In this document: one piece after another, positions 11,351-30,840 of the stretch
Layout of the letters: every line of letters begins with the position of its first letter
Position numbering within the stretch: position 1 is the first letter of the stretch
Origin: Dickeya dadantii NCPPB 898
Lineage (GTDB): Bacteria; Pseudomonadota; Gammaproteobacteria; Enterobacterales; Enterobacteriaceae
DNA: 32,000 nucleotides
Reading direction: 5' to 3'
NCBI RefSeq assembly: GCF_000406145.1
Contig: NZ_CM001976.1
Span: 414,830-446,829 of the forward strand
Position numbers and translations under genes: made by a program
The notes under the pieces: generated by a model
Database searches by the model: none
What the model was told of the DNA's origin: nothing
Seen by the model: only the letters and a program-made list of their open reading frames with translations

Positions 11351-11435
11351 GCCGAAGTGGCGAAATCGGTAGACGCAGTTGATTCAAAATCAACCGTAGA
11401 AATACGTGCCGGTTCGAGTCCGGCCTTCGGCACCA
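11351..11435 (+). tRNA. leuX: tRNA-Leu (anticodon CAA)
   Basis: GCCGAAGTGGCGAAATCGGTAGACGCAGTTGATTCAAAATCAACCGTAGAAATACGTGCCGGTTCGAGTCCGGCCTTCGGCACCA has an acceptor stem GCCGAAG/CTTCGGC, anticodon loop TTCAAAA, a long variable arm and an encoded CCA. It matches E. coli leuX as I recall it. Confidence 0.93.
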
Positions 11436-11466
11436 AAATTCAAAAATCAAGCCATCTTCGGGTGGC
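11413..11466 (+). repeat. Direct repeat DR1 (attL): tRNA-Leu 3' end plus downstream hairpin
   Basis: TTCGAGTCCGGCCTTCGGCACCAAAATTCAAAAATCAAGCCATCTTCGGGTGGC recurs at 31948-32000 with one 1-nt deletion and one substitution. Its core recurs at 17594-17611. Confidence 0.85.
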
Positions 11467-11473
11467 TTTTTTT
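11451..11473 (+). terminator. tRNA-Leu terminator
   Basis: GCCATC-TTCG-GGTGGC hairpin followed by T7. Confidence 0.6.
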
Positions 11474-11654
11474 GTGTCCGCTATCGTCCATTGACTTCCA
11501 TATATCATTGTTAAATAACTATTTATCCTGATTTTATTGTCTGGGTGGATTGTGCGTTTTTTCCACAGTGGTCTTTTTGCATCCGTTGTAATCCAGATTA
11601 TTTGGGGGTCAAGATAAGGGTCAATTCGCTTCGATTATGAGTTGACCCCCAATT

Positions 11655-12923: not shown

Positions 12924-13021
12924 AAGACAATTATTTATAACAATAAATCATAACTAATTAACGTTTATCTTTTCCCGATATTCTACTATTAGATAATAGT
13001 AATCATGGAAAGGTAAATGCT

Positions 13022-14239: not shown

Positions 14240-14282
14240 TTGCCATTTGGTTTTTATAAAAACAAATAAAATGAGATATTAT

Positions 14283-15911
14283 ATGAAAAAACCTCAACCT
14301 AGAAAGGAAAAGCTTTCTATATATCTCGTAAGAAATGCCAATAAAAAAGATGATGAATTCATAAAAATAGATAAGGCTAAAAATGGAATTGAGATAAAAT
14401 TAGATGGAGTTGATTATGCATTTCTATATGCAAAAAATAGTTTTAAAAATACTCCATCTTGGACAAAATTGTTTACTCATTATGAGCATATAAATGCAGA
14501 TTATTTTGGTATGTCTAGCAACGTTGGTGCTGTTTTTGTTGTTAGAGCTTTTGGGTATGCTTTTATTTTATCATTTGGTTCCGGTTTTCACTTAATAAAA
14601 GATGAAGAAATAGAAAGGGACTTCGGTTTAAGAGTAACATTAAATTCAGTTGATCCAGACAAACTGAGAAGCTTAGATAAAGCTAGTTATGATCATAATC
14701 CTTTAAATTCCCGAACGCAAAGTACAAAAGATGTAGATATTTTTAATCTTCATTTAGATTCAGAGTCAGAGTTGCTTTACGCAGTAACTGGGACTTCTTT
14801 GGTTAAAGAATTTGGTAGTCAAGTTACTGGGAGAGATGCTCTCACACTTGCAGTTGATATTACTTTGGAACAAATATCAGGAATTCTTCATGAAGCAATT
14901 TCGAGATATAAGAAAAAACTACCTGATAAGTTTTCTTGGGTTGAGAATATCAACAGGGTTCGTGATCAAGATGAAATTGATATTCTTGATTTGGAGTTGG
15001 ATGACTATTTTTCATCTGGGTGTTATACCAATTTTTGGTTAGGAGAACCTGAGATAGTTGATTGGGAGGGGCAAGTTGGATATTCGTTTGATATGTATCC
15101 CAGAACACCTAGGTATATTATTTTGACATTAGATGATTATATAGAATATCTTAATGGTGAGCCCATTTCTGTATTCAGGCTTAAGGGTGACGTTATTCAT
15201 ATAAATAATAGTGATTTTATATCAACCAAATCTTGGTCTGTATATAGATGTTTGTATGCTGAAATAATTTTTGGTGATGCGTATTATATATTAAGAAATG
15301 GAGTGTGGTATAAAATAAATCAAGATTTTGTTAACTCTGTTGATGAATATCTCGTTGATTTAAGTGATTATGATTTTGATTTTCCTATCTATGATCATGA
15401 AAGAGAAGATATTTATAACGATTACCTTTGTAAAAATTATTCTAACTTTTCTTTAATGGATAAAAAGAATATAGCAATAGGTGGAGTATACGATAAATTG
15501 GAACATTGTGATCTTATTCGAAATGGATGTGATTTTATTCATGTTAAATATTACAGAAGCTCTGGTACATTAAGTCATTTATTCTTTCAAGGTATGGTTG
15601 CCGCAGAAGCATTCATTAAGGACAAAGATTATAGAAAAAAGTTAAACCCTAAATTGCCTGAATCCATAAGATTAGATGATGTAAACTCAAGGCCAAATCC
15701 CAATAAATATAAAGTTGTTTATGCTATAGCGACAGTTAAGAACCTGCCACAGGAATTACCTTTCTTTTCTAAAGTAACATTAAAAAACACTCTAAAGACA
15801 TTAAAGGCCTTGGGTTATATTGTATCAATAGCAAGAATTGATATATCTCCTATAATTCTTAAGATTAAGAAATGCAAGCCTAAAAAATATCATCTTAATA
15901 ATTTTAATTAA
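14283..15911 (+). CDS. Uncharacterised large protein, possibly the TIGR04141/DUF6119 'sporadically distributed' family (unverified)
   Basis: The ORF is open from 14247 (TTG). ATG 14283 (MKKPQPRKEKLSIYLV) or ATG 14271 is a more plausible start. It begins less than 50 nt after the dNTPase stop, on the same strand, with the same extreme AT-richness. Conserved-looking blocks are FGSGFHLIKDEEIERDFGLRVTLNSVDPDKLRSLDK and, in the C-terminal half, LEHCDLIRNGCDFIHVKYY...FFQG. The family name comes from memory only. Confidence 0.7.
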   Translation: MKKPQPRKEKLSIYLVRNANKKDDEFIKIDKAKNGIEIKLDGVDYAFLYAKNSFKNTPSWTKLFTHYEHINADYFGMSSNVGAVFVVRAFGYAFILSFGSGFHLIKDEEIERDFGLRVTLNSVDPDKLRSLDKASYDHNPLNSRTQSTKDVDIFNLHLDSESELLYAVTGTSLVKEFGSQVTGRDALTLAVDITLEQISGILHEAISRYKKKLPDKFSWVENINRVRDQDEIDILDLELDDYFSSGCYTNFWLGEPEIVDWEGQVGYSFDMYPRTPRYIILTLDDYIEYLNGEPISVFRLKGDVIHINNSDFISTKSWSVYRCLYAEIIFGDAYYILRNGVWYKINQDFVNSVDEYLVDLSDYDFDFPIYDHEREDIYNDYLCKNYSNFSLMDKKNIAIGGVYDKLEHCDLIRNGCDFIHVKYYRSSGTLSHLFFQGMVAAEAFIKDKDYRKKLNPKLPESIRLDDVNSRPNPNKYKVVYAIATVKNLPQELPFFSKVTLKNTLKTLKALGYIVSIARIDISPIILKIKKCKPKKYHLNNFN

Positions 15912-15995
15912 TATAAATTTAATGAGGATATTCGGAATGACTTTAAATTTTTAAAAATCATTGCGTTGATTTTTTAATCAATTTGTTCTTGTTTC

Positions 15996-16037
15996 CACCG
16001 CGCCCGCCCCCTCCCCAAAAAGGGGGCGGGCGCGGTG
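15996..16037. terminator. Perfect GC-rich hairpin between convergent genes (bidirectional terminator or module junction)
   Basis: CACCGCGCCCGCCCCC (15996-16011) is the exact reverse complement of GGGGGCGGGCGCGGTG (16022-16037), with loop TCCCCAAAAA. It is embedded in AT-rich DNA. Confidence 0.6.
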
Positions 16038-16134
16038 CCAGACGCTATCATGATTGGCAAACCATAAGGTCTGGTTGCTACTAATAACGTTAATTGGTTG
16101 GCTTTCGACTAATACTGATGGGAAATGACGCCAT

Positions 16135-16536
16135 TTATTTTAAATCAGCATGCTTAAATGTTTGTTCGCCAGCCTGGCTATTTGTCATTTTTAGCATGCT
16201 ATTCTCTTCTGTATAAGTGATTAAGGCGTCATTCGGGTTATCTCGCCAACGGCCTATGTAGTTAGGTTCCGAATCACTTCCAGCGGTTCGCCATAGCACT
16301 CGTGACCCTTCTATCATCTTGCACTGATATTTCCACAGGCTATTATCACTTGGCCTGTGATATTGCAAATTAACGAGATCCCCATTCACTTTTGTTTTCA
16401 TTATTTTGGGTTCTTTTGCGAACTCCATTGACATGGCTGCTTTACAGATTTCAGCATTCGAGAAGGGAGCTGAAAAAGCGGGAATAGCCATTAATGAGGT
16501 ACTTAAAATCAGAGAGAACTTAATTAAATGCTTCAT
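16135..16536 (-). CDS. Small secreted/periplasmic protein of unknown function
   Basis: 133-aa ORF with a Sec signal peptide MKHLIKFSLILSTSLMAIPAFS/AP and two Cys residues in the mature part. I recognise no family. Confidence 0.65.
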   Translation of the reverse strand: MKHLIKFSLILSTSLMAIPAFSAPFSNAEICKAAMSMEFAKEPKIMKTKVNGDLVNLQYHRPSDNSLWKYQCKMIEGSRVLWRTAGSDSEPNYIGRWRDNPNDALITYTEENSMLKMTNSQAGEQTFKHADLK

Positions 16537-16564
16537 AAACCCTCTTTATTTTGATAAAAATTTA

Positions 16565-17044
16565 TTACCATAACGATAATAATAAGGTGTGTTCCTGTAT
16601 TTCTGACGGGACAAAACCCCAGTATTGGTAGAACGCTTTTGCCTCATCAGATAACGCATGTACCAATAACGCTTTGTTGCCTACCTGCTGCGCTACATTG
16701 CGGGAGCGGAGTACCGCATCTTTCAGAAGCCCGGCACCGATCCCCATACGTTGATAACGTTCATCAACGGCTAATCGGCCAAGTACCAGAACAGGAATGG
16801 GGTCAGGCATATTGCGCCGGAATGCGCCCGGTGCAACCTGACGCTGGATGCTACCCGACGCGAGGGCATAGAACCCCACCACACGCTGTGTACCGGCTTC
16901 ACACACCACGAAGGTGCGTGAAGCGCCCAGCGTCTGATTTTTTAACGCCTTGCGTTTCAGCCATTCATTCAATGACGGCTCGGAACAATGAAAATCCACA
17001 ACTGCATGTTGAGGCAGCAATAATTCAGGTGCCGTTATTCCCAC
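16565..17044 (-). CDS. GNAT-family acetyltransferase toxin (TacT/KacT-like type II toxin)
   Basis: 159-aa ORF with a GNAT core (RLAVDERYQRMGIGAGLLKDAV...AFYQYWGF). It overlaps the upstream DUF1778-type antitoxin gene by 10 nt, the canonical TacAT arrangement. Confidence 0.85.
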   Translation of the reverse strand: MGITAPELLLPQHAVVDFHCSEPSLNEWLKRKALKNQTLGASRTFVVCEAGTQRVVGFYALASGSIQRQVAPGAFRRNMPDPIPVLVLGRLAVDERYQRMGIGAGLLKDAVLRSRNVAQQVGNKALLVHALSDEAKAFYQYWGFVPSEIQEHTLLLSLW

Positions 17045-17307
17045 GGAGATTTCCTGTTCAGTAATGCATTCACACGCGGATTATCTGTGACTGGTGATTC
17101 CAACACCTGAATGAAAGCATCATATTGTTCATCATTGACCAGAAACAGCCTTTGATCCAACAACACATCCTCAGCCTCACGGCAGGCAGCATCAAGGATA
17201 AACTCTGTTCTTGATTTCGACAGCAATTTAGCGGCGACATCAATCAGCTCCCGCTGTGATGCTTTAGCACGAATATTAATCGGCATTTCTTTTGGCTCTG
17301 TTCGCAT
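17035..17307 (-). CDS. DUF1778-family (TacA/KacA-like) antitoxin
   Basis: The start is trimmed to the ATG at 17307 (RBS AGAGAGG). MRTEPKEMPINIRAKASQRELIDVAAKLLSKSRTEFILDAACREAEDVLLDQRLFLVNDEQYDAFIQVLESP is a ribbon-helix-helix type and matches the DUF1778 pattern (I.lR......li..AA...g.s.teFil..a...A..vl.d). Confidence 0.85.
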   Translation of the reverse strand: MRTEPKEMPINIRAKASQRELIDVAAKLLSKSRTEFILDAACREAEDVLLDQRLFLVNDEQYDAFIQVLESPVTDNPRVNALLNRKSPWE

Positions 17308-17593
17308 CGTGACCTCTCTGTGTAGCGAATAGCTATACATCCAGTATAGTGAACGGTACAGCAAATAGCCACACGCCATTCATGAACAACATTTTCGTCA
17401 TAGCGGGGTTGGGTTAGGATCTGTTACACGGAATCGAACCGGAACGGATAAGAATTAATCTTATTGATAAAATGACGTGATATAGCTCATTGAAAACATG
17501 GGCTAAAAATGAAGTGGGGGCATAAAAGGGGGCACCTAAATTAGGTTGGTGAGTATTAAATTTTATTATTCAATCAATTACATCATTTTGCGT

Positions 17594-17611
17594 GTCCGGC
17601 CTTCGCACCAA
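17594..17611 (+). repeat. Direct repeat DR2: 18-nt remnant of the tRNA-Leu 3' end (junction of segments A and B)
   Basis: GTCCGGCCTTCGCACCAA equals tRNA positions 11418-11436 minus one G. It carries the same 1-nt deletion as DR3. Confidence 0.75.
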
Positions 17612-17623
17612 CAGTATATAAAT

Positions 17624-17647
17624 AGACGTCAACCGACGTCTTTTTTT
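17624..17647 (+). terminator. Hairpin plus T-run following DR2
   Basis: AGACGTC-AACC-GACGTCT followed by T7 (17641-17647). It occupies the position a tRNA terminator would. Confidence 0.5.
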
Positions 17648-17796
17648 ATGCCTGAAATCCAGTATTTACCCGCCTTTCCCGCTATATTCATTCTCTCAGG
17701 GTCAACCGACATCTATGTACATCTACCAACAGTTGTTGGTACAGCTGATGGTATTTTCGGTTCGATAATGCTTGTACCAACGGGGAGGAAATAAGT

Positions 17797-18255
17797 ATGG
17801 CGCTCACTGATATCAAAGTCAGAACAGCCAAGCCTTCGGATAAGCAATACAAGCTGACCGACGGCAATGGTATGCATCTGCTGGTTCATCCCAATGGCTC
17901 AAAGTATTGGCGCTTTCGTTTCGGTGGTAAACAGCACCTGATAGCGTTTGGCGTCTATCCCGAAGTTTCACTGGCTGATGCCAGACATAAAAGAGAAGCT
18001 GCCAGTGGACTGACCCCGCCACGGCTTTCGCACCATGGCCTGTAGCTTACTGATTGAATCAGGATTATGGTCGAGGGATGCGATGGAACGGCAGATGAGC
18101 CACATGGAGCGCAACTCGGTACGAGCGGCGTATATCCTAAAGCTGAGTATCTGGATGAGCGTAAGCTTATGCTGCAATGGTGGGCAGATTTTCTGGATGC
18201 TAATAGGGAAAAGGCGGTGAGTGCGTTTGATTTTGGTAAGATAAAAAGTCGTTAG
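17797..18255 (+). pseudogene. P4-type integrase pseudogene (large internal deletion plus frameshift)
   Basis: The N-terminal roughly 65 aa (MALTDIKVRTAKPSDKQYKLTDGNGMHLLVHPNGSKYW...SLADARHKREAA) align with the intact integrase at 11655. At about 18000-18030 the sequence jumps to the C-terminal HGFRTMACSLLIESGLWSRDAMERQMSHMERNSVRAAYI, which is in another frame. A further frameshift near 18135 precedes AEYLDERKLMLQWWADFLDANRE. Confidence 0.85.
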
Positions 18256-18281
18256 ACACGTATTCTGAATCAGGGGATATT

Positions 18282-19139
18282 ATGTATACGGATGAGTTAT
18301 TGGCTATTCAATCTGATTGGTCAAAAAAATCATTGTTATTAATGAGAAAACTTCTAACATTAATGACTCCGGTTGCTTTATTTGACCAATGGACTAAAGA
18401 AGAGCAAAGTACGATTGGTTTTTTGCTTGCTGCATCAGCAAGGTCAACAGAAAGTCTATTTTTATTGACCTCATATGGGCAGCTTTGGGACGCAGAAATG
18501 ATGCAAAGGGCTATCATTGAAGCATCGTTAAAATTTGTATTTCTTCTTGAATCTAGAGAAACATTTAAAGATAGGTTTAATGAATACTCAACAGCGCAAT
18601 ACGAGATATCCCTACTCAAGGATGATAATAAGGTTTTAGAGCTATTAAGCATCCTGCCTAACTCTGATGATGAAAAATGGCTCCCTTTGCGGGAACGTTT
18701 GCTTGCTGATGAGGAAAGAAAAATGATTAATGAAACGTACGATAAAAGTTATCGCAGATCTCTTGAAACGCGATGGGGGTTTACTAGTATTATAGGAAGT
18801 TTGACCCGTAGCGGAAAACTATTTCATGGGTTAAGTGAATTATCATATGGGTACTCTGTATCAAGCCATGTTCTACATGCCGATTATTTAGGGGTAGTAC
18901 TACCGATTGAAAGAGATAGTAGAGAGCATGAGAATCGATCTGCTTTACATTTGGCTCATTTGAGTAGACATATCTCTGATGCTTTCACATGCCTGATCAT
19001 GCGACTATATGCTGGATATCGATTTGTCGGGATAGATACGGCGGCCATAAATGAAGCTATTAAGAAAATAGATGATCTACAGGTACCATTTCGTGAAGAA
19101 TATAATAAATGGATAGATATAGAATACGGAGGTAAATAG
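18282..19139 (+). CDS. Hypothetical protein (AT-rich orphan)
   Basis: 285-aa ORF with an RBS AGGGGA upstream. It looks helical by eye and has no signal peptide. I cannot assign a family with confidence. Confidence 0.65.
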   Translation: MYTDELLAIQSDWSKKSLLLMRKLLTLMTPVALFDQWTKEEQSTIGFLLAASARSTESLFLLTSYGQLWDAEMMQRAIIEASLKFVFLLESRETFKDRFNEYSTAQYEISLLKDDNKVLELLSILPNSDDEKWLPLRERLLADEERKMINETYDKSYRRSLETRWGFTSIIGSLTRSGKLFHGLSELSYGYSVSSHVLHADYLGVVLPIERDSREHENRSALHLAHLSRHISDAFTCLIMRLYAGYRFVGIDTAAINEAIKKIDDLQVPFREEYNKWIDIEYGGK

Positions 19140-19685
19140 AATTAAGAACGAGCCTGTCCACTAATGCTGGGTAATATCATGAATGCAGTCCATTTTCAGA
19201 TAGTGAAAAAAATTCCACGCAAGCATTATCATAACAACAACCCTTGACACTCATACCGCCTCGAAAATTATGTTGTATCAACCAACTAATAAGGTAAAAG
19301 ATAACTATGCACAATAATATCGCAAGAACCTTTGAAAATGGTTCGTCGAGTCCATAGTAATTTTTTGTTATTAAATCAATTAATTATTAAAACTATGAGT
19401 TACATCAATATATTAGACTCTAAATTGTTCAAACTTGGTTTTTTGTGGATTTGATGGGTTAGTATACTTCAATTACACAATTGGCATGGCACTGAAGTAA
19501 GCACCGTTAGCCTTAGTAAGCTCCTTGGGACATTAGCAAGAGCTTCGCCATTCTCGGTAAAGGCAATATCGGTTAGTCCTTGGGGCACTTATACCGAGTT
19601 GAAGGGTTATCTTTGCATCGTTTACGAGGCAAAGAATATGATGTCATTCCTTTTCCTGTGAGGATGACGTTGTGTACTGATTTAT

Positions 19686-21887
19686 ATGGGGTCTCGAACT
19701 TTGGATAGCATTGTGGGAAAGCTCAATCCGCTATTGCGGCTAGCAGCCATCTCGGGCGTCGAAGCTGCGATCACATTCCATATTCTTCGGGGTGATGACT
19801 TGGATGCCCGCGATAGCAGTGGCTCAACGCCTCTGATCCTCGCCGCATCTAGGAGAAACAGCGGGGCTGTAAGGCTTCTACTTGACGCGGGGGCAAATCC
19901 GACACTTGTCGATCCAGAAGGGATGAATGCTCTAGCGCATGCCTTACGAGCCAATTGCCTAGAGACAATTGAGATACTAAGTGAGGCATTCAATATGCCA
20001 CCCTTGGAGGCCACTGAGTCAGATGAAGTAATTACCAACAATCAGGAAAAGATATCCTCTTGCTTCGATAAAATATCTGATGGCCAGGCATCGGGGAGCG
20101 AATCCCACGCAGTGGGCAAGAATATCCCTACCTCTCCTGAATATCACTTCGAGCCCATTTCCCCCAAGGCAACGACTCGATATATTTTTGAAGTCGATTC
20201 CCTTTCTCTAGATCCTCTTTCCTTGGATGCTGAATTTGAGGACAACTGGGAAGTTGAGATTAACCCTGTTGCGCCTGTTGGTGACCAACATGTTGCAGAG
20301 GCCGTCAAGAATGTTTACAAGGCGATAGGTCAACATAAGGCAGTAGATAACGACGAGGACTGGGGTGATATCGATCTCTATCTTCCTGTAATAAAATCCA
20401 TTTTAGACCATGAGGGCGTTGATTATACCCTCCGGGTTTTCCTCCTTGCAGCAATCCGCGATGGGATTATTTCTGAAGAAAACCTTGTTGAACTTTGCTT
20501 AAACGCCAACGGATCACGCAATGAAGATTTTGAGAGATTCATTGGTATTGCTGCAGGAGAGCTTGGTGCGATTGTGGACGAACAGAGTGGAGTCACTATA
20601 AATGATACCTCTCTCGATGAGTCGTCTCTTGAGGAAAAACTCCTTCTCGATGAAGCAATTGAGTTCATCAAGGATCTAGCCTCGGATCACAATGAACCGT
20701 TCAGATTTTATTCCAAGGATATCCGATGCAGGCTTCTTGAGGCCAAAGAAGAGATCGCTCTTAGTCGAGAGATGGAAGAGGCTTGGCAAGATGTGCTATC
20801 GGTCCTTGCTCAATGGCCAGAAGGACTCGCGGTGTTATTTGACTGTGCTGAAAAGGTTTTGAGAGGGGAGGTTGATGCTGGAGCGTTCAGCACTGGACCT
20901 GATTTGCTCCTAGAAGATGGGGCAACAGAACTGGAGGATGTGTACGATGAGGATGAAGAGGAAAAAGAGCATGATGCCGGCTCAGCATTTATGACTGCTA
21001 TAGCAGCCGTTCGGAGTAAGATTGGAGACTTCCAGCGAACCAAAGAAGCATTAGAAGCGGCTAAGCTAACTCGCGGATTTCTTTTTGAGCTAGCCGAACG
21101 AGCCAAAGATGATTCTAATGCAAAGGGCCTTACTGATGCTCTTGAGCGGCAGTCCTATGCTCGGGATCGCTTGATTCAGTGTAATCTTAGACTCGCTTTA
21201 TCCATTGCCAAGAAGCACCGGTGGTCAGGAGTGCCGATGGACGATCTTGTTCAAGAGGCAAACATTGGCCTTATAAAAGCGGTTGAACGCTACGACTGGC
21301 GCAGAGGTTTTCGCTTCTCTACATACGCAACGTGGTGGATTCGTCAACAGATAACACGTTCCATTGCTGACAAAAGTAGGAGTGTTAGGGCACCGGTACA
21401 CGTTCAGGATAAGGCTTGGAAGATCATACGGGAGCGCAATGAGATCGAGTTGCAGAGAGGGTACCCTGAGCGTGATATCGACACAGCTTCGCGGCTCGGA
21501 ATTCCGCTATCAAAAATATGGATTCTCCTGTCGATATTTGATGATGCAGAGTCTCTTGATGAGATCGATTTGAATATGAGTTGTGCTCGAGTGGAGCTTC
21601 TCGTGAATCGGAATGCCTCGGCACCATTTAAGCTTGTTGAGAATTCGTCTCTCTCCTCTACGCTCTCGGGAATGCTGGAAGAGTTAGATGAAAGGTCTCG
21701 CACAGTGATTATGTATCGCTTTGGATTAGGCAACATTGACGCGATGACCTTGGAAGAGGTAGGGCAGATCTTCGGGGTTACACGTGAGCGTATCCGCCAA
21801 ATAGAGTCCAAAGCGATGCAGAAACTTTCTAGTGAGAAAAGGAAGGAGATCTTGGCTTCCTTTATGAGCGAGGATGATTATCAATAA
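19686..21887 (+). CDS. Ankyrin-repeat / sigma-70-family (RpoD/RpoS-like, regions 1.2-2-3-4) fusion protein
   Basis: N-terminal ANK consensus: GSTPLILAASRRNSGAVRLLLDAGANPTLVDPEGMNALAHALRANCLETIEIL (nt about 19815-19975). Region 1.2-like: FRFYSKDIRCRLLEAKEEIALSREME. Region 2: LIQCNLRLALSIAKKH...DLVQEANIGLIKAVERYDWRRGFRFSTYATWWIRQQITRSIADKSRSVRAPVHV (nt about 21170-21400), near-identical in pattern to E. coli sigma-70 region 2. Region 4.2: TLEEVGQIFGVTRERIRQIESKAMQKL (nt about 21747-21825). Its stop codon overlaps the next gene's ATG (TAATG, 21885-21889). Confidence 0.85.
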   Translation: MGSRTLDSIVGKLNPLLRLAAISGVEAAITFHILRGDDLDARDSSGSTPLILAASRRNSGAVRLLLDAGANPTLVDPEGMNALAHALRANCLETIEILSEAFNMPPLEATESDEVITNNQEKISSCFDKISDGQASGSESHAVGKNIPTSPEYHFEPISPKATTRYIFEVDSLSLDPLSLDAEFEDNWEVEINPVAPVGDQHVAEAVKNVYKAIGQHKAVDNDEDWGDIDLYLPVIKSILDHEGVDYTLRVFLLAAIRDGIISEENLVELCLNANGSRNEDFERFIGIAAGELGAIVDEQSGVTINDTSLDESSLEEKLLLDEAIEFIKDLASDHNEPFRFYSKDIRCRLLEAKEEIALSREMEEAWQDVLSVLAQWPEGLAVLFDCAEKVLRGEVDAGAFSTGPDLLLEDGATELEDVYDEDEEEKEHDAGSAFMTAIAAVRSKIGDFQRTKEALEAAKLTRGFLFELAERAKDDSNAKGLTDALERQSYARDRLIQCNLRLALSIAKKHRWSGVPMDDLVQEANIGLIKAVERYDWRRGFRFSTYATWWIRQQITRSIADKSRSVRAPVHVQDKAWKIIRERNEIELQRGYPERDIDTASRLGIPLSKIWILLSIFDDAESLDEIDLNMSCARVELLVNRNASAPFKLVENSSLSSTLSGMLEELDERSRTVIMYRFGLGNIDAMTLEEVGQIFGVTRERIRQIESKAMQKLSSEKRKEILASFMSEDDYQ

Positions 21888-23380
21888 TGCAGAAAACCAG
21901 ATATGCGCCGCCGAAAGCCAATGCAATGATGGAGGCTCTCAGAGGGCTCGGTTATTCAACCGCAGCAGCCTTGGCTGATGTTGTAGACAACGCTGTGTCT
22001 GCAGGTTCTGCAGAGGTGTATCTGCGATTTGAATGGGATGGAACGCAAAGCTGTATTTCGATACTAGATGATGGTCATGGAATGACTGATACCGAGCTTG
22101 AGACTGCCATGACCCTTGGGACGATAAATCCTTTGGATGAAAGGACTGCGACTGATCTCGGACGTTTTGGTATGGGTCTGAAGACTGCCTCGTTTTCCCA
22201 ATGCCGTAGGCTTACTGTTGCTTCCAAGCGAGAAGGCGGAGTTCTGGTTTGTTTACGCTGGGACTTGGACGCTATCGCTACAGATCCGCAGGTTGGTTGG
22301 CGTATGTTCGAGGGACCAGCATTAGGCTCCGAGCGGTTCTTTGAACCGCTAAACGACTTAAGCTCGGGGACGCTCGTTCTTTGGGAATTAATGGACAGAG
22401 TTGTCATGCCCGGTACGAACTTGGATCACTTTGCCGACCTAATTGATGATGTGGAATCCCGTTTATCGATGACCTTCCATCGCCTTATTGAGGGGCCTCG
22501 CCCAGATTTCCGCCTGTTCATCAATGGCAAACTGGTGGTCCCTTGGGATCCGTTCATGGTTGGCCACCCTGCTAAAGCCTTGGAATCTCCCATAGAGCGC
22601 AGAATCACTCAGTCAGGAGTTTTGGAGGTCCAATGCCATGTTCTCCCGCACAAAGATAAATTATCTGACGAGGATCTTTTCAAGGCTGGCGGCCCTGACG
22701 GCTGGATATCTCAGCAAGGGTTCTATGTCTATCGTAACAAAAGACTCCTTCTGGCCGGTAGTTGGCTAGGGCTTGGAAGAGGGAGAGCATGGAGCAGGGA
22801 TGAATCGCATCGACTTGCGAGAATCCGGGTTGATATGCCGAATACCGCCGACGCAGATTGGAAGATCGATGTTAAGAAGTCCACTGCCCGACCACCGGTT
22901 TTTGTCCGTAACTGGTTGACTGGAATAGCAGAAAACACGAGAGACAGAGCTCGTAAGGTATTCGCCTTCCGAGGATCGCCGACGTCTAGGTTGAGCAGTG
23001 CTCCCATCGAGCAGACTTGGCGGGTTGAACATCTGAAGAGCGGCGTTCGATACCGCATAGATGAGACGCACCCTGCCGTCGCGGCAGTTATTGAGGTTTG
23101 TTCAGACCGAAAGCATCTTGTTAGAGCGATGCTCCGGGTTATTGAGGAGACAGTCCCTGTCCAACGGATATGGCTCGATACTGCCGAGAACAAGGACACT
23201 CCTAGAACAGGGTTTGATGGGGAACCGAACGAAGCTGTTATACAGGTTGCGAGTGTCCTTTTTAATGATTTGATCGAGCGCAAGGGACTGAGTGTTGAGG
23301 AAGCCCGTAAGTCAATGCTCAAGACTGAGCCCTTCCAAAAATATCCCTCACTAATTGCAAATTTACAGAGAGATGAATGA
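21887..23380 (+). CDS. MORC-like GHKL (HATPase_c_3-type) ATPase
   Basis: Bergerat-fold motifs are an N-box ALADVVDNAVSAGS (nt about 21974-22006), a G1 box DDGHGM (22068-22085) and a G2 box GRFGMGLKTAS. Start and stop are coupled to the neighbouring genes (TAATG upstream, ATGA downstream). Confidence 0.85.
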   Translation: MQKTRYAPPKANAMMEALRGLGYSTAAALADVVDNAVSAGSAEVYLRFEWDGTQSCISILDDGHGMTDTELETAMTLGTINPLDERTATDLGRFGMGLKTASFSQCRRLTVASKREGGVLVCLRWDLDAIATDPQVGWRMFEGPALGSERFFEPLNDLSSGTLVLWELMDRVVMPGTNLDHFADLIDDVESRLSMTFHRLIEGPRPDFRLFINGKLVVPWDPFMVGHPAKALESPIERRITQSGVLEVQCHVLPHKDKLSDEDLFKAGGPDGWISQQGFYVYRNKRLLLAGSWLGLGRGRAWSRDESHRLARIRVDMPNTADADWKIDVKKSTARPPVFVRNWLTGIAENTRDRARKVFAFRGSPTSRLSSAPIEQTWRVEHLKSGVRYRIDETHPAVAAVIEVCSDRKHLVRAMLRVIEETVPVQRIWLDTAENKDTPRTGFDGEPNEAVIQVASVLFNDLIERKGLSVEEARKSMLKTEPFQKYPSLIANLQRDE

Positions 23381-26286
23381 ACATGATGGAAGAGGTTGGC
23401 TTGCAAGCTGAGCTACTAGAAAACGTCATCGCCACGGCTCAACGGCTAGTAAAGGCAGAGAAAGATAAATCTAAGATAACCCCGGCGTTCATTGCTGAGA
23501 AGGTGAGTTTTGCCACGAAGATGTTTGCTGATGACTCACTTCACTCGGTGGATCAAAATCAGGCTATTGCCATACTAATTCAGCGTTTCAGTCACCGAAT
23601 CGGTAAGCCAACCACGTTGAAGAACGATGTAGACCATGTCGACTGGCTTTCTGCAGCGAGAAAACGTGATTGGCGCTATTGGCGTCGATATGGAGACTAC
23701 TTGGAATCCAAGCTTTCCGACGTTGTAGTCGAGGGGCTTAACGAGACCACTGATGATATCCTCAGCCTCCTGGAGGATCCAGAAAGATCGGACTCATGGG
23801 ATCGTAGGGGGCTTGTTGTCGGGCATGTGCAATCAGGCAAGACCAGCAACTACTCAGGACTAATTTGTAAGGCAGCTGATGCTGGCTATAAGATTATCAT
23901 CGTCCTTGCAGGCATGCATAATAACTTGAGGTCGCAAACTCAGATGCGGCTAGAAGAGAGTTTTCTTGGCTACGAGACGACCACTGATCGTGATGTCGGT
24001 ATACCAATAGGTGTTGCAGAGTTCGGTGATGACCTGAAGACCAACTCTGCAACAACGCGGGCTGAGAACGGTGATTTTAGTAAAGCGATTGCGAGGCGAT
24101 TTCACGGTATATCTCCAGAGGAGAGGCCATGGCTTTTCGTTGTAAAGAAGCAAAAGACCGTCCTCACAGCTCTGTTGGACTGGATTCAAAAACGAGTAGC
24201 GGACAGCACCGACTCAATTGATGGTCGCAAGCTTGTGACTAAACTTCCGCTTCTAATGATCGACGACGAGGCAGATAACGCGTCAGTTGATACTGGAGAG
24301 CAGATATTCAAGGATGATGGTACACCTGACGAAGAGCATCAGCCTAAGACTATTAACAGTCTTATTCGTCAGATCCTTCATACCTTCACTAGGAAGGCGT
24401 ATGTTGGCTATACTGCAACGCCTTTTGCCAACATTTTTATCCACCACAAAGGTGCAACAGCGAAGGAAGGCCCTGATCTTTTCCCTCGTTCGTTCATCAT
24501 CAATTTAGCAGCTCCATCCAATTACGTTGGTCCTACGCAGATGTTTGGCAAGATGACGAAGGATGGCCGTACGGAGGGGCTGCCTCTATCTAGAAACATC
24601 TGTGATCATTACGACCCCAAGTCAGAGTCTGGGTGGATGCCACCAAAGCACAAGAAGACTCATATCCCTAATTACAACGGCGAAGAGGCGATTCCTCCAT
24701 CGTTGCAGCAAGCTATCTACACGTTCATTTTGTCATGTGCTGCCCGTCAATTACGAGGGCAAGGCACCCAACATAGCTCCATGCTGATTCACGTCACCCG
24801 TTTCGTTGATGTTCAAAAGCTCGTGTGCGAACAGGTCGATAAGACGGTACGTCGCATGCGGCAGCGTATAACTCGAGGAATGGGGGCGGAGGAGATTCTG
24901 GGACAGTTGCACCAACTTTGGAACGATGACTTTCTTCCTGTTCGAGACAAAGTTGCAGTGCTCCTACCAAAAGAGGAGTGTCCTCCGAAAATGCCGACTT
25001 GGAATGATATTCTCGCTGTTCTGCCTGAGGTGCTGGAGGATATAGAGGTTCGCTCTATTAATGGTACTGCCAAGGATGCTCTCGATTATGCAACACTAGG
25101 TGCGGCTTTGAAAGTAATTGCGATAGGGGGCGACAAGCTTGCTCGTGGACTTACGTTGGAAGGGCTATGTGTAAGCTACTTTGTGCGCACAACGAAGATG
25201 TATGACACGCTAATGCAGATGGGGCGCTGGTTCGGTTATCGCCCTGGTTATCTGGACTTATGTAGACTGTACACATCCCCCGACTTGGTGAGATGGTTTG
25301 GGCATATTGCTGATGCTTCGGAGGAACTCCGTGATGAGTTCGATTTCATGGCAGAAGCAAAGCTCACTCCAGAGCAGTATGGGCTTAAAGTGATGTCACA
25401 TGATGTTATGACTGTAACTTCCCCCTTGAAGATGCGTAATTCACAGACTCTTTCATTTACTTATAGTGGAGCGCGATCCCAAACTATCCTCTTTCATCGT
25501 GATTCCAAAATTCAGCAGCAAAATCTCGATGCTACAGATGCTTTGGTTATGTCTCTTGGCACCTATTGGATAGAATCACCGAAATATGAACGCGAAGGAA
25601 ACCCTGATTCTTGGCCTGATGCACGTCTTTGGAGGGATGTAGGTGTTTCCAAAGTTCTTGATTTTCTCAACACCTATTCAACGTATCCTGCGCCCCGCGC
25701 AAATGCAGCTGTATTGTCCGAATTTATCTCGAAAATGGTTGATACAGGCCAATTAACCAAATGGAGTGTCGCTTTGCTCGGGGGCGGTAATGGCAATGGG
25801 GAAATCCATACTTTCCCCGGAGGAGTTCCCTCAAAGAAGTACTTAATCCGTAAAACCGAAGAATTGGGGTCGCTTGACCAGCAGGAGGCTAAGACCTTCG
25901 CTATTGGCGTGCTTACTGACCCGAAAGATGAAAGTATAGATCTTAGCGATGACATTTGGCATAAAGCCTTAAATTTAACTCGTGCTGCTTGGAAACCGGA
26001 CCCTGCTCGTGGCCGCGACAAACAACCAGATTTTCCAAGCGGCAAAGGTATCCGAGAGATTCGTGGGAAGCTCGGTGGTGAGACTGACAGAGGACTACTG
26101 CTACTCTACCCACTTTCCCCCCATTCGTCCTACAAAGGTAAACAACAGGACGAGTTAATTGTTCCCGGATGGAATAAACCAATCATGGCTTTCGCTATTG
26201 CTTTCCCTGCTAGCGACAAAGCGATTGAGGTGGAGTACAAAGCTAACCTGCTTTATTGGATGCAAGAATATGGCCCGTCAGAGTGA
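23377..26286 (+). CDS. Z1-domain protein with SF2-type NTPase core
   Basis: Walker A GHVQSGKTSNYSG (23821-23847). DEAD-like Walker B LMIDDEADNAS (24256-24276). Motif III-like GYTATPFAN. ARGLTLEGLCVSYF and QMGRWFGYRPGY resemble motif VI and the Z1 signature. The ATGA overlaps the ATPase stop (23377-23380). Confidence 0.85.
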   Translation: MNMMEEVGLQAELLENVIATAQRLVKAEKDKSKITPAFIAEKVSFATKMFADDSLHSVDQNQAIAILIQRFSHRIGKPTTLKNDVDHVDWLSAARKRDWRYWRRYGDYLESKLSDVVVEGLNETTDDILSLLEDPERSDSWDRRGLVVGHVQSGKTSNYSGLICKAADAGYKIIIVLAGMHNNLRSQTQMRLEESFLGYETTTDRDVGIPIGVAEFGDDLKTNSATTRAENGDFSKAIARRFHGISPEERPWLFVVKKQKTVLTALLDWIQKRVADSTDSIDGRKLVTKLPLLMIDDEADNASVDTGEQIFKDDGTPDEEHQPKTINSLIRQILHTFTRKAYVGYTATPFANIFIHHKGATAKEGPDLFPRSFIINLAAPSNYVGPTQMFGKMTKDGRTEGLPLSRNICDHYDPKSESGWMPPKHKKTHIPNYNGEEAIPPSLQQAIYTFILSCAARQLRGQGTQHSSMLIHVTRFVDVQKLVCEQVDKTVRRMRQRITRGMGAEEILGQLHQLWNDDFLPVRDKVAVLLPKEECPPKMPTWNDILAVLPEVLEDIEVRSINGTAKDALDYATLGAALKVIAIGGDKLARGLTLEGLCVSYFVRTTKMYDTLMQMGRWFGYRPGYLDLCRLYTSPDLVRWFGHIADASEELRDEFDFMAEAKLTPEQYGLKVMSHDVMTVTSPLKMRNSQTLSFTYSGARSQTILFHRDSKIQQQNLDATDALVMSLGTYWIESPKYEREGNPDSWPDARLWRDVGVSKVLDFLNTYSTYPAPRANAAVLSEFISKMVDTGQLTKWSVALLGGGNGNGEIHTFPGGVPSKKYLIRKTEELGSLDQQEAKTFAIGVLTDPKDESIDLSDDIWHKALNLTRAAWKPDPARGRDKQPDFPSGKGIREIRGKLGGETDRGLLLLYPLSPHSSYKGKQQDELIVPGWNKPIMAFAIAFPASDKAIEVEYKANLLYWMQEYGPSE

Positions 26287-27283
26287 AGAATTCATTTTAG
26301 CTTGGCTGTCGCTCTCCAGTGACAGTGAAGTTCCAGGCTGGCAGGCTATTTCGCTACCGTCTTCAGGGGCCGTCGAGCTTCAGGCTGGTCGGCGCTTGCC
26401 GGATAACGCTGAGGCAGTTTTGTTCTCTTTCCCTACAGCGCGTTTAGCTCGTGCTGAGAAGCTGCCCGAGGGCAAGGGATTCTTGGTGGAGAAGGCAGAA
26501 GCTATGGGGACGAATGATCTCCTATTAGCATTGACCCGACAGGAGGAAGGGAACTTAGAGTTGTTTACTTTAATGGTCTGCGATGTTGTTGGTGCAATAG
26601 ATGAAGGAGTTGCTGAAGGCGTTGCAGAGTCTGGCCTCTTGCGAATTCTGGTCAGACGAGTACTTGCGTGGCAACAGTTTATGTCTCGCGGTTTGAGCCC
26701 TCTAGGTCCTGAAGCAGAGTTGGGCCTTATGGGAGAGCTCTACTTTATGACCCTTCTTCTTGATTTGCAGTTGCCGCCCATGGAGGTTCTGAGTGCATGG
26801 GTTGGTCCCGATGATGCGCCTCAAGATTTCCTTCTAGGTGATGGGGCAATCGAAGTGAAAGCGACTATGTCTTCCTCTGGCTTTCCCGTTAGGATAAGTT
26901 CGCTGGAGCAATTAGACGACGCTGTCTCTTCGCCATTGTTCTTGGCGGCTATCAGGTTTATCAGGCTGGAGGAAGGGTTTACCTTGCCAGAGATAGTTGC
27001 CGAGATTGAGCAACGTCTTAAAGGCCAGCCCGCATCGGTCAACTTTTTTTGTGAGCGGCTCATGCTTGTTGGATACTCTTGGGCTCATATGAGCAACTAC
27101 ACTCGAAGATTTAAACCAAAAGAGAAACTTTATTTTTCAATATCCGAAGGTTTTCCTCGTTTAACTCTAGGATCCGTCCCCATCGGAGTGACGCGAGCGC
27201 AGTACGAAATAAACTTGGACCATGCTAGGGACTTCCTTACTGAGCTTGATGTGGTTCTCAAAAAACTAGGAGTTAGTGGATGA
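26270..27283 (+). CDS. PD-(D/E)XK-motif protein (putative nuclease)
   Basis: The start is trimmed to the ATG at 26270 (MARQSEEFILAW), which overlaps the Z1 gene by 17 nt. The motif PQDFLLGDGAIEVKAT has the D codon at 26825 and E-V-K at 26852-26860, i.e. D-x10-E-x-K. Confidence 0.75.
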   Translation: MARQSEEFILAWLSLSSDSEVPGWQAISLPSSGAVELQAGRRLPDNAEAVLFSFPTARLARAEKLPEGKGFLVEKAEAMGTNDLLLALTRQEEGNLELFTLMVCDVVGAIDEGVAEGVAESGLLRILVRRVLAWQQFMSRGLSPLGPEAELGLMGELYFMTLLLDLQLPPMEVLSAWVGPDDAPQDFLLGDGAIEVKATMSSSGFPVRISSLEQLDDAVSSPLFLAAIRFIRLEEGFTLPEIVAEIEQRLKGQPASVNFFCERLMLVGYSWAHMSNYTRRFKPKEKLYFSISEGFPRLTLGSVPIGVTRAQYEINLDHARDFLTELDVVLKKLGVSG

Positions 27284-29106
27284 CCCTTGATGATTTTCTG
27301 TCTGAAACCCGGGCTGAAATAGCGGCTCAAATGAGCGATGGTTCTTCCTTCACGGAATTGATCTTTTGTGAGGTGGTGATGCAACACCTCATGGAAGCAG
27401 GAATGACTTTTGAACCCGTTGTTTGTCATTTTCAAGGGAAAGTCGGTAATGCGAATCTGAGGCTGAGTGGCTACACCATTTCTGAAGATCTTGACCAACT
27501 TGACCTGTTTGTCAGTCTCTACGAGGGATTCGAGGTTCTAACGCCGATCCAAGAGCAAGATACAAAGATGGCCGCTCAGCATTGTGTTCGCTTTCTTGAA
27601 CTTTGTGCAACGGGCCGTCTTCTGAACAAACTCGATCCATCAAGCGATGTCTACTCACTCGCCCTTATTATCAGCGAGATATATGATAGTTTGGAACAAG
27701 TACGTGTATTTGTTCTCACGGATGGCGTTGCCAAGTCCAAGAGTTTTAAACCCCGTGATGTTGGAGGTAAGACAGTTCGACTCGAGGTTATGGACATAGA
27801 GCGACTCTTTCGACATCGTTCCGAGGGCAAGCCGCGCGACGAACTTGTGATCGACTTCAAGGATGTTTCAGGTTCCCCACTTCCGTGTGTTTATATTCCT
27901 GGAGATACAGGAGATTACGATTACGCACTGACCGCCATCCCTGGTGAGGCTTTGCGGTTCATCTACGAGAAGTTTGGCCCTAGGCTCCTTGAAGCCAACG
28001 TACGGTCTTTTCTTAGCGTCAAATCTAGAGGGGTCAATGCAGGTATCCAAAACACCTTACGCTCAGCACCAGAACGCTTTATGGCCTTCAACAATGGCAT
28101 CGTTCTTGTGGCCGACGAGATGAAGCTCGAACGGGCTAATGACGGCTCTCCTGGAATCATTTGGTTACGTGGAATGCAGATAGTGAACGGTGGTCAAACT
28201 ACTGCCTCTATCTATTTCGCAAAGAAGAAATACTCGGATACCGACTTAAGCAAGGTCAGGGTCCCTGCAAAGATCATTGTCATTAAGGAGGCTGACCCTA
28301 CAAAAGAAGAATCGCTAGTCTCCGATATCTCACGATATGCTAACTCCCAAAATTCAGTGCGGCAGTCGGATCTCTCAGCGAATAAGCCATTCCATGTTGA
28401 GGTAGAGAGACAGTCACTGGCAATTTATTGTCCAGATGGTGTTGGCCGTTGGTTTTATGAGCGAGCAGCGGGAAGCTACAATACACTTCTCATCCGTGAG
28501 GGAACAACCCCAGCTAGGCTTCGTGCACTGAAGGATTCTGTGCCAACATCTCGCAAGATCACCAAGACCGAGTTGGCGAAATATTTCATGGCTTGGGATG
28601 TTAGACCGGAGATAGTTAGCCTTGGAACGCAGAAGTGTTTTGAGCGCTTCATGACTATGCTCAGTGAGGTTGAAGCGGCTGGGAAACCTATTGTATCAGA
28701 TTCAGTTTTCTTTAAAACGTTAGTTGCCAAAGCCATTGTGTTCAAGATCGTTCACAAAACGGCCCGTCCGCACGTTTCCGCTTTCCTTGCAAACGTTGCT
28801 GCTTACACCGTAGCAGTTGTGGCCGATTACTATCGCGATACCTTTGATTTGGAGAAAGTTTGGCTTCGACAGAGTGTTTCACCACAATTAATAGAGCAAG
28901 TCAAGGTCTGGTCCCTTGAGGTGAACAACCGTCTTCACGAGACAGCCAAAGGAAAGATGATTTCGGAATGGGCCAAACGACCCGAATGCCGGGAGGAAAT
29001 GTTTGCACGTCCTTTCTCTCCACCGTCAGTGGATATTCCTGAATTACGTCGACCTGAATTTGTTCAAGTGAGGCAAGAACATTCAGAAATTCCCGCAGAG
29101 GATTGA
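27280..29106 (+). CDS. AIPR-family (abortive infection phage resistance-like) protein
   Basis: 608-aa ORF. ...FNNGIVLVADEM...GMQIVNGGQTTASIYF, with the VNGGQT motif at 28186-28200, is typical of the AIPR/Abi-like family. The ATGA overlaps the previous gene (27280-27283). Confidence 0.8.
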   Translation: MTLDDFLSETRAEIAAQMSDGSSFTELIFCEVVMQHLMEAGMTFEPVVCHFQGKVGNANLRLSGYTISEDLDQLDLFVSLYEGFEVLTPIQEQDTKMAAQHCVRFLELCATGRLLNKLDPSSDVYSLALIISEIYDSLEQVRVFVLTDGVAKSKSFKPRDVGGKTVRLEVMDIERLFRHRSEGKPRDELVIDFKDVSGSPLPCVYIPGDTGDYDYALTAIPGEALRFIYEKFGPRLLEANVRSFLSVKSRGVNAGIQNTLRSAPERFMAFNNGIVLVADEMKLERANDGSPGIIWLRGMQIVNGGQTTASIYFAKKKYSDTDLSKVRVPAKIIVIKEADPTKEESLVSDISRYANSQNSVRQSDLSANKPFHVEVERQSLAIYCPDGVGRWFYERAAGSYNTLLIREGTTPARLRALKDSVPTSRKITKTELAKYFMAWDVRPEIVSLGTQKCFERFMTMLSEVEAAGKPIVSDSVFFKTLVAKAIVFKIVHKTARPHVSAFLANVAAYTVAVVADYYRDTFDLEKVWLRQSVSPQLIEQVKVWSLEVNNRLHETAKGKMISEWAKRPECREEMFARPFSPPSVDIPELRRPEFVQVRQEHSEIPAED

Positions 29107-29203
29107 GTGCCAAATATTGATTAGCTACAGCCATTACAAGCTATTTACTGAAGCAATGGCTGATATATAAACTGTCTATAATGGGGCGTAGGCCTTGGAA
29201 CTT

Positions 29204-30775: not shown

Positions 30776-30797
30776 GGTATATATCGGTGGGTTTAGT

Positions 30798-30812: not shown

Positions 30813-30840
30813 AGGAAGAGAAGCGAACGGAAAGAAATCT

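Follow-up and report, generated by a model that had tools for sequence, protein, structure and literature searches.

The 32,000-nucleotide stretch of the Dickeya dadantii NCPPB 898 genome analyzed here (the window; contig NZ_CM001976.1, positions 414,830 to 446,829) contains, at positions 19686 to 21887, a gene that encodes ankyrin repeats and a sigma-70-type sigma factor in a single protein. This gene is, with very little doubt, mzaA, the first gene of the mzaABCDE (MZA) anti-phage system, in a diverged clade that has its own Dcm methyltransferase and Vsr endonuclease and is found in an integrase island at a tRNA-Leu gene. The ankyrin-sigma fusion that heads the operon is the hallmark of an established system, and is not new: the MzaA of Escherichia coli has the identical architecture, so that the fusion in D. 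dadantii is no novelty. An earlier note on this DNA read the sequence correctly, but missed the published and database-curated system, and its statement that no sigma factor had been described in such a cluster was wrong, given that the protein is the MzaA of mzaABCDE, which has models in PADLOC and NCBIfam (NF041931), and is named in a passage of a published study (PMC9523054). The locus is an ordinary, automatically recognizable member of a published system, the claim of a discovery falls, and the interest lies in the role of the sigma factor. The genes of the locus are as follows.

19686-21887, plus strand: mzaA, ankyrin-repeat/sigma-70-family protein (longest open reading frame, 733 amino acids)
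21887-23380, plus strand: mzaB, MORC-like GHKL ATPase (Pfam HATPase_c_3; PADLOC MzaB, E = 1e-173; NCBIfam MzaB, 711 bits)
23377-26286, plus strand: mzaC, Z1-domain helicase-like protein (Pfam, PADLOC, NCBIfam)
26270-27283, plus strand: mzaD, PD-(D/E)XK nuclease, DUF4420 (Pfam, PADLOC, NCBIfam; start ATG 26270 from the orthologues)
27280-29106, plus strand: mzaE, AIPR protein (Pfam, PADLOC, NCBIfam)
29204-30775, minus strand: dcm, C5 cytosine DNA methyltransferase, convergent with mzaE (Pfam DNA_methylase, E = 3e-46)
30697-31299, plus strand: vsr, very-short-patch repair endonuclease (Pfam Vsr, E = 1e-31; longest open reading frame)

The five mza genes are adjacent and co-oriented on the plus strand (19686-29106), and encode, in order, the sigma factor, the GHKL ATPase, the Z1 protein, the PD-(D/E)XK nuclease (DUF4420), and the AIPR protein, with ends that overlap or abut. 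The stop codon of mzaA (TAA, 21885-21887) and the start codon of mzaB (ATG, 21887-21889) have one base in common, and this overlap (TAATG, 21885-21889), from which the earlier note had taken mzaA for a member of the operon, is confirmed in the sequence; the downstream domains that it had read, GHKL, Z1, PD-(D/E)XK, and AIPR, are recovered in Pfam as HATPase_c_3, Z1, DUF4420, and AIPR. The ATG at 19686 is not kept in Yersinia, where the orthologue begins at the equivalent of the TTG, and the real start of mzaA is probably TTG 19701 or GTG 19713. A D. dadantii database protein, annotated with 724 amino acids, matches the window protein at 100% identity. The longest open reading frame of mzaD begins at TTG 26159, and the orthologues point to ATG 26270 (MARQSEEF...), with a 17-nucleotide overlap with the end of mzaC, while the true start of vsr probably lies downstream of 30697.

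The assignment to MZA is based on two collections of models and on the architecture of MzaA itself. In PADLOC, the five proteins match MzaA, MzaB, MzaC, MzaD, and MzaE, with E-values ranging from 3.5e-62 to 2.7e-302, and in NCBIfam each of them scores best with its MZA counterpart, over nearly the full length of the model. The model for the first gene, NF041931, entitled [quoted passage not shown], aligns at its positions 1-716 (of 726) with amino acids 12-729 of the window protein. The scores of all five proteins lie below the NCBIfam equivalog cut-offs (MzaA 470.9 against 800, MzaB 711 against 850, MzaC 1156.7 against 1500, MzaD 335.7 against 420, MzaE 891.6 against 1050), and, as the Mza model is still the best in each case, the locus represents a diverged clade of MZA and no exact equivalog. 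The N-terminal ankyrin repeats, the acidic W...DEDWxDxDLxLP signature, and the sigma-70 regions 2 and 4, which together distinguish the MzaA family, are all found in this single polypeptide.

The system itself has been recorded in the literature and in genome annotation. In a passage that cites Gao et al. 2020, mzaA is named as a sigma factor of the recently discovered and validated mzaABCDE system (Nature Communications, PMC9523054), and, in these passages and in an E. coli preprint, protection against phages has been demonstrated for the MZA systems of Salmonella and E. coli only. The preprint validates the E. coli system, in which purified MzaD cuts T4 DNA, and infected cells show no growth arrest. 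The RefSeq annotation of E. coli includes mzaA to mzaE, and its MzaA (683 amino acids) consists of ankyrin repeats, Sigma70_r2, and Sigma70_r4 in Pfam. No published role for the MZA sigma factor was found in the literature reached, which excluded the paper of Gao et al. 2020 itself.

The link between the ankyrin-sigma gene and the remainder of the operon is conserved over long evolutionary distances. The ankyrin-sigma gene comes first in all 17 lineages with a full mzaABCDE, which are distributed among the Alpha-, Beta-, and Gammaproteobacteria and the Verrucomicrobiota; three of these loci were reached from the MzaE side (with the sigma gene first in 3/3), and the others from the MzaA side. 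Among 5426 complete genomes of E. coli, mzaA is present in 55 and mzaBCDE in 55, with co-occurrence in 55/55, in addition to one mzaE remnant. The chance adjacency of a paralogue of the housekeeping sigma factor is ruled out by this linkage in the 17 lineages and the 55/55 E. coli genomes. The stop codon of mzaA overlaps the start of mzaB in 9 of the 17 lineages. In locus L083 and in about 10 of the 55 E. coli genomes, an IS421 insertion is found in mzaB, with mzaA and mzaCDE intact.

The neighborhoods were taken from contigs that encode homologues, and from plasmid and E. coli collections, instead of a pattern scan of genome contigs with the most conserved sigma blocks of the MzaA alignment, which returned the housekeeping sigma factor in 78 of 80 loci, leaving only two that were useful (L002 and L003). 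In a search for relatives lacking the sigma factor, the best 120 homologues of MzaE were 77-96% identical, and were all close relatives.

The layout of MzaA was established from a 20-sequence and a 128-sequence alignment of the family, with conservation counted over 127 members, and may be divided as follows.

19719-19985, plus strand: three ankyrin repeats, amino acids 12-100 (Ank_2; predicted local distance difference test, pLDDT, of 79-92 in the helix pairs; mean consensus frequency 0.79 in the 127 members)
19986-20240, plus strand: variable linker, amino acids 101-185, predicted to be disordered (pLDDT below 50)
20241-20408, plus strand: acidic signature segment, amino acids 186-241 (motifs W-E-x-E...P and DEDWGDxDLxLP)
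20409-20585, plus strand: putative region 1.1-like domain, amino acids 242-300 (hhalign; local fold match)
20691-20783, plus strand: sigma region 1.2, amino acids 336-366 (weak in Pfam; aligned with RpoD 95-123)
20784-21140, plus strand: insert resembling the sigma-70 non-conserved region, amino acids 367-485, with an acidic loop at about 413-429 (alignment with RpoD)
21141-21395, plus strand: sigma domain 2 (regions 2.1-2.4), predicted core binding and -10 recognition/melting (Sigma70_r2, E = 1.4e-20)
21396-21635, plus strand: sigma domain 3, diverged (collinear with RpoD)
21636-21869, plus strand: sigma domain 4 (regions 4.1-4.2), predicted -35 recognition and flap binding (Sigma70_r4, E = 2.5e-17)

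In Pfam, the protein matches Ank_2 at amino acids 18-100 (E = 2.7e-11), Sigma70_r2 at 496-565 (E = 1.4e-20), and Sigma70_r4 at 664-714 (E = 2.5e-17). The AlphaFold model, with a mean pLDDT of 66.9, has three helix pairs at amino acids 15-102 that correspond to three ankyrin repeats, where the earlier note had read "two to three". The linker that follows (101-185) is only 5-9% identical to those of Azonexus and other distant orthologues, and varies in length, and is followed by the signature segment, in which W188, P197, W226, L231, L233, and P234 are invariant in the 20-sequence alignment. The signature motif is common to every clade, including the MzaA proteins of E. coli, of a Burkholderia variant described below, and of the Alphaproteobacteria.

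The segment that lies between the signature and region 1.2 was examined by several approaches. The alignment of MzaA 242-370 with RpoD 2-130 in hhalign has a probability of 94% (E = 1e-7); the region 1.1-like part alone gives a marginal score of 17.8, in comparison with 10.2 +/- 2.1 for shuffled sequences, with a shuffle maximum of 17.7. When this mid-domain was modeled separately, its closest local fold match was the sigma1.1 of Bacillus subtilis (5mww; template modeling score 0.60), which is not significant (E = 5.6); Foldseek found no significant match for this separate model, and Pfam no region 1.1 in the isolated mid-region. An exhaustive HMMER search with the N-terminal 335 amino acids was dominated by eukaryotic multi-ankyrin proteins, and every match that covered the mid-domain came from an ankyrin-sigma protein, whole or fragmentary, with no case seen of this domain in a protein devoid of sigma domains. 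The alignment suggests that a region 1.1-like domain is probably kept at amino acids 242-300, and, given that it is retained, that the ankyrin module is probably an addition to a complete sigma factor, rather than a replacement of region 1.1. The proposal of the earlier note that the ankyrin repeats and acidic linker take the place of region 1.1 is probably wrong, and the acidic stretch EDVYDEDEEEKEHD (amino acids 416-429), which it considered to be unassignable, lies between regions 1.2 and 2, and aligns with the acidic loop of the non-conserved region of sigma-70. A weak Sigma70_ner match was recorded in one relative.

The sigma part of the protein is complete and collinear with RpoD. The C-terminal 260 amino acids are 39% identical to residues 356-612 of the E. 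coli RpoD (E = 1e-49), and a family profile aligns MzaA 288-728 collinearly with RpoD 46-612 in hhalign (E = 7e-61). The closest relatives of solved structure, by sequence, are RpoD/SigA chains, and the top Foldseek matches are sigma-70 proteins in RNA polymerase complexes (E about 1e-16). Regions 2, 3, and 4 together occupy amino acids 486-728, and the NCBIfam RpoD_Cterm profile is matched at positions 1-237 of 238. The Pfam families that the earlier note expected were found for Ank_2, Sigma70_r2, and Sigma70_r4, while region 1.2 fell below the cut-off (15.8 bits for the fragment 336-495 alone, against a cut-off of 22), and Sigma70_r3 was not detected in the window protein at E <= 0.01. The presence of regions 1.2 and 3 is indicated by the collinear hhalign alignment, the RpoD_Cterm match, and by relatives that exceed the Pfam cut-offs for each of these regions. 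In region 3.2, the acidic sequence at the tip of the finger, DDEDSHL in RpoD, is replaced by PDSGLSR in the family consensus, and by LNMSCAR in the window protein. Two homologues, P0110 and P0117, have a clearly RpoD-like region 3 (Sigma70_r3, E = 9e-30, and the motif DDEDSHLGDFIED in P0110), and resemble mosaics with a housekeeping sigma factor, while the remainder of the family differs in this region. Many homologues, among them P0056, P0031, P0094, and others of approximately 880-900 amino acids, have an additional C-terminal domain of some 150 amino acids, with the conserved motif ...GGELRIVAP...AFGRRL..GF...RDVF, which is missing from the window protein.

The residues that determine the function of sigma-70 are retained almost without exception. 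All 127 members are identical at the equivalents of D403, Q406, N409, Y430, W433, W434, Q437, and R441, and of R584, E585, R586, and R588, while the equivalents of E407 and Q589 are identical in 126 of the 127. We take D403, Q406, E407, and N409 to be the residues of core binding, Y430, W433, and W434 those of strand separation, or melting, Q437 and R441 those that read the -12 position, and R584, E585, R586, R588, and Q589 those that read the -35 element. Regions 2 and 4 are thus present with the core-binding, -10, and -35 residues of group 1/2 sigma factors, and the promoter-recognition blocks, described in the earlier note as almost RpoD-like, have -10 and -35 readers that are invariant or nearly so. 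Recent gene conversion from rpoD as the source of these blocks is ruled out, because the identity between mzaA and rpoD at third codon positions is only 27-41%, which indicates that the blocks have been conserved by selection. In the E. coli MzaA, region 4.2 is identical to sigma-70 residues 572-600 over 29 amino acids, including the activator-contact patch, with 39% identity at third codon positions. In the clade of the window this patch is altered (R596Q, R599S, H600S); in sigma-70, it is contacted by activators and by the AsiA protein of T4.

From these residues, we infer that MzaA binds core polymerase and recognizes ordinary -35/-10 promoters. This prediction argues against both a private class of promoters and a purely passive decoy, and the idea of a "private" sigma factor is weakened by DNA-reading residues that are those of the housekeeping sigma. 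A housekeeping specificity cannot define a private regulon, which suggests that MzaA is more than a regulator.

Given this, MzaA may be a working sigma factor that couples the ATPase-helicase-nuclease machinery to transcription initiation complexes, which is a tentative reading of the sequence, held with slightly more doubt than belief. MzaA would bind core RNA polymerase to form a holoenzyme that opens ordinary -35/-10 promoters, as sigma-70 does, while its N-terminal ankyrin/signature module would hold other Mza proteins, most likely MzaE (AIPR) and MzaB (GHKL ATPase). The MzaB-E machinery would thereby be coupled physically to initiation complexes, either to be loaded on transcribed DNA, or to have its activity gated. 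In this clade, methylation by Dcm would presumably mark the self DNA, with Vsr repairing the resulting T:G mismatches. This reading is consistent with a complete sigma factor, collinear with RpoD, in which the key residues are invariant or nearly so, and the ratio of nonsynonymous to synonymous substitution rates (dN/dS) is 0.03-0.12 in domains 2 and 4. The position of the sigma gene in the 17 lineages, its 55/55 co-occurrence in E. coli, and the nine stop-start overlaps argue for a subunit rather than a neighbor, and the conservation of the ankyrin repeats and signature motifs in all clades points to an N-terminus that docks. In one lineage, a gene for a WYL/BrxR-type regulator (L102, 465-1364) lies directly upstream, overlapping the start of mzaA by 8 nucleotides, and mzaA is nevertheless kept, which argues for more than a regulator.

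A number of points weigh against coupling to the polymerase. No published experiment or structure was found that shows MzaA in complex with RNA polymerase or with any of MzaB-E, MzaC and MzaE have no relatives in the PDB, and we know of no sigma factor that acts as a tether. A gap of 43-365 nucleotides separates mzaA from mzaB in 8 of the 17 lineages, so translational coupling is not universal, and the faster evolution of mzaA (dN/dS 0.22) would also fit a loosely constrained regulator. The sigma factors known from other defense systems, DdvS (PMC11506125) and CalpS, are regulators of transcription. Relatives that lack mzaA are reported, in a passage of PMC9523054, with a "putative transcriptional regulator" instead, and this substitution suggests a functional equivalence with a regulator.

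These last points lead to the possible, although unlikely, alternative that MzaA is a dedicated transcription factor for the mza operon, and perhaps for dcm and vsr, which may be autoregulated, with a cue from MzaB-E or the phage acting on the ankyrin module as an anti-sigma-like switch. Transcription initiation is the sole known activity of the proteins of the sigma-70 family, all the residues required for initiation are conserved, and mzaA heads the operon. This alternative also has regulatory precedents in DdvS, an extracytoplasmic function (ECF) sigma factor of a CBASS/CRISPR island, and CalpS, of a type III CRISPR system, as well as in the regulator recorded in place of mzaA in the relatives reported in PMC9523054. 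The sequence upstream of mzaA offers one further point in its favor, which is the following candidate.

19244-19271, plus strand: candidate sigma-70-type promoter, TTGACA-16-AATTAT (consensus match; about 430 nucleotides upstream of the start)

This is the best promoter match of the region, and is conserved upstream of mzaA in three enterobacterial loci (the Dickeya window, Pectobacterium, and Yersinia). Nevertheless, no strong promoter is shared upstream of mzaA by the 14 loci compared, in which the counts are no higher than in shuffled sequence, and the scan of the window for promoters and terminators likewise returned counts no higher than in shuffled sequence, with only the enterobacterial TTGACA-16-AATTAT being conserved. 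The housekeeping-type DNA-reading residues would leave no room for a private class of promoters, and a protein of 730 amino acids with conserved ankyrin and signature modules exceeds the needs of a regulator. The retention of mzaA beside a separate WYL/BrxR-type regulator in one locus, and its invariable co-occurrence with mzaBCDE in the 55 E. coli genomes, also count against a dedicated regulator.

The candidate promoter lies within an AT-rich leader of 550 nucleotides (19140-19700), which is conserved in Pectobacterium and Yersinia; a search of Rfam with window positions 16000-32000 returned nothing, and the leader has no match to any known RNA family. The leader contains a direct repeat, TCCTTGGGACATTA (19522-19535) and TCCTTGGGGCACTTA (19577-19591), and a deletion in the Yersinia leader spans exactly from one copy to the other.

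The evolutionary rates bring in two further alternatives. In the comparison with the Pectobacterium and Yersinia orthologues, mzaA evolves faster than any other gene of the operon, with a dN/dS of 0.22, against 0.05-0.15 for the other genes. Within the sigma part, this ratio is 0.03-0.04 in domain 2, 0.07-0.12 in domain 4, and 0.33-0.43 in domain 3, and rapid change in the protein is concentrated in the linkers, the region 1.1-like domain, the insert, and region 3. On shared contigs, identity is 46-65% for MzaA and 85-87% for MzaE, and the E. coli alleles have nucleotide identities of 89.8% in mzaA and 94.8% in mzaBCDE.

A rapid rate of this type is typical of a component that faces the phage, and may reflect a decoy or guard, that is, an MzaA that mimics sigma-70, with its binding by phage proteins that bind or appropriate sigma-70 releasing or activating the MzaBCDE nuclease machinery. 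This is improbable overall, although the E. coli-type region 4.2, kept identical to sigma-70 over 29 amino acids by selection, and the two members with an RpoD-like region 3 are compatible with it. The E. coli-type loci, moreover, lack an adjacent methylase, and purified MzaD cuts DNA non-specifically, which implies the need for some activation switch in these systems. A pure decoy, however, would have no need of melting and base-reading residues that are invariant in 127 members from several phyla, the patch contacted by activators and AsiA is changed in the window clade, and many of the hosts have phages for which no targeting of sigma is known. In the E. coli study, growth arrest was not observed, and the defense was sensitive to DNA modification, which points to direct restriction.

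It is far less probable that MzaA is a spare sigma factor resistant to takeover, which replaces sigma-70 on the core when a phage disables the latter, so that the transcription of the host and its defenses continues. The housekeeping promoter specificity would be expected of such a protein, and the rapid evolution of its surface (the region 1.1-like domain, the insert, region 3, and the patch of region 4) is compatible with it, but it would explain neither the conserved ankyrin module nor why the gene is so strictly linked, and often translationally coupled, to a nuclease system whose proteins are made before infection.

The coupling of MzaA to initiation complexes and the guard have in common an immune system with a housekeeping-type sigma factor among its functional components, in which either open complexes load or license the nuclease, or a sigma-70 look-alike reports the attack of the phage; such a system is conceivable, but must be considered doubtful. 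If it were true that RNA polymerase-MzaA open complexes at -35/-10 promoters load or license a MORC-like ATPase, a helicase, and a nuclease against foreign DNA, restriction would be coupled to initiation, and either version would represent a novel means by which invaders are sensed or targeted. With the sigma factor as the targeting or sensing subunit, restriction would be linked to transcription initiation, in a bacterial parallel to the promoter-directed silencing by the eukaryotic MORC ATPases. The question is sharpened by four results: the retention of every key residue checked, the unbroken linkage to the nuclease genes, the conserved docking module, and an evolution faster than that of the partners.

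A hint on the partners of the sigma factor comes from the Burkholderia variant, found on a plasmid of Burkholderia sp. THE68 (NZ_AP022320.1, 1946-13937), which encodes dcm, vsr, a GHKL ATPase, an HNH endonuclease, a DEAD/DEAH helicase, an EcoRII-N protein, the ankyrin-sigma protein, and an AIPR protein. Here the HNH endonuclease and the DEAD-box helicase take the place of Z1 and DUF4420, while the AIPR protein, which is 58% identical to MzaE, adjoins the sigma gene, and the GHKL ATPase is 31% identical to MzaB. The survival of the sigma-AIPR pair and the ATPase through the exchange of the helicase and nuclease hints that the partners of the sigma factor are the AIPR protein and/or the ATPase.

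The clade of the window is widespread, and has dcm, usually with vsr, beside mzaE, while the E. coli loci have neither. The dcm gene is found at the same position as in the window in 10 other lineages of the clade, with vsr beside it in most of the related loci; both are adjacent in the window, as in every lineage examined other than E. coli, and the methylase would presumably protect the self DNA. In one locus (L101, 14820-21779), a Zorya-like cluster (ZorA-like, MotB_plug, EH_Signature, and an SNF2 helicase) adjoins the mza-dcm-vsr genes, which is a typical defense-island context.

The region upstream of the locus in the window has the following features.

11351-11435: tRNA-Leu(CAA), which follows lptG
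11655-12923: P4-type integrase, which opens the first of two apparent islands
13022-14239: anti-phage dGTPase, in a low-GC block (about 0.31)
14247-15911: TIGR04141 protein, in the low-GC block with the dGTPase
16565-17379, minus strand: GNAT toxin/TacA antitoxin pair, which closes the first island
17797-18045: integrase Arm-DNA-binding fragment, between the TacA pair and the DUF5677 gene
18282-19139: DUF5677 protein, directly upstream of the mzaA region

The order after the integrase is the dGTPase/TIGR04141 block, the GNAT/TacA pair, the integrase fragment, DUF5677, and mzaABCDE-dcm-vsr. There appear to be two tandem islands at the tRNA-Leu(CAA) gene (11351-18045), and the integrase fragment was probably part of the mza island, the older of the two; Pectobacterium and Yersinia have the mza island at the identical site. 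The DUF5677 gene has a 92% identical copy in Pectobacterium, and is absent in Yersinia and Aeromonas, and this patchy distribution suggests that it probably lies outside the MZA system.

The system most similar to that of the window is the MZA of E. coli and Salmonella enterica (Gao_Mza), in which MzaA has the same ankyrin repeats, signature segment, and sigma regions 1.2, 2, 3, and 4, and the genes follow the same order, from the sigma factor through the GHKL ATPase, Z1, and PD-(D/E)XK to AIPR. The E. coli and window MzaA proteins are 24% identical in the N-terminal half and 40% in the sigma part, and differ in the surface patch of region 4, while the adjacent dcm and vsr of the window clade are lacking in the E. 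coli loci. The MORC/paraMORC operons (Iyer, Abhiman and Aravind, 2008, PMC2292703) have a core formed by a MORC-like GHKL ATPase, a superfamily 2 (SF2) helicase, AIPR, and a nuclease of the restriction fold, to which Dcm and Vsr are often added, and share the downstream genes and the Dcm/Vsr linkage with the window, but their description makes no mention of a sigma factor or ankyrin protein (PMC2292703). A sigma-70-family protein is also encoded in the anti-phage loci of DdvS/DdvA (PMC11506125) and CalpL-CalpT-CalpS, although DdvS and CalpS are small group 4 (ECF) sigma factors, regulators with private promoters and cognate anti-sigmas, whereas MzaA is group-1-like, with housekeeping specificity, an ankyrin fusion, and no recognizable anti-sigma. 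RpoD, finally, has the same collinear layout from the putative region 1.1-like domain to the C-terminus, the same core, -10, and -35 residues, and an acidic loop between regions 1.2 and 2, but lacks the approximately 240 additional N-terminal residues of MzaA (ankyrin repeats, linker, and signature segment), which is also distinguished from RpoD by a diverged region 3 in which the acidic tip of the finger is missing, by its place in a mobile defense operon, and by its dN/dS of 0.22.

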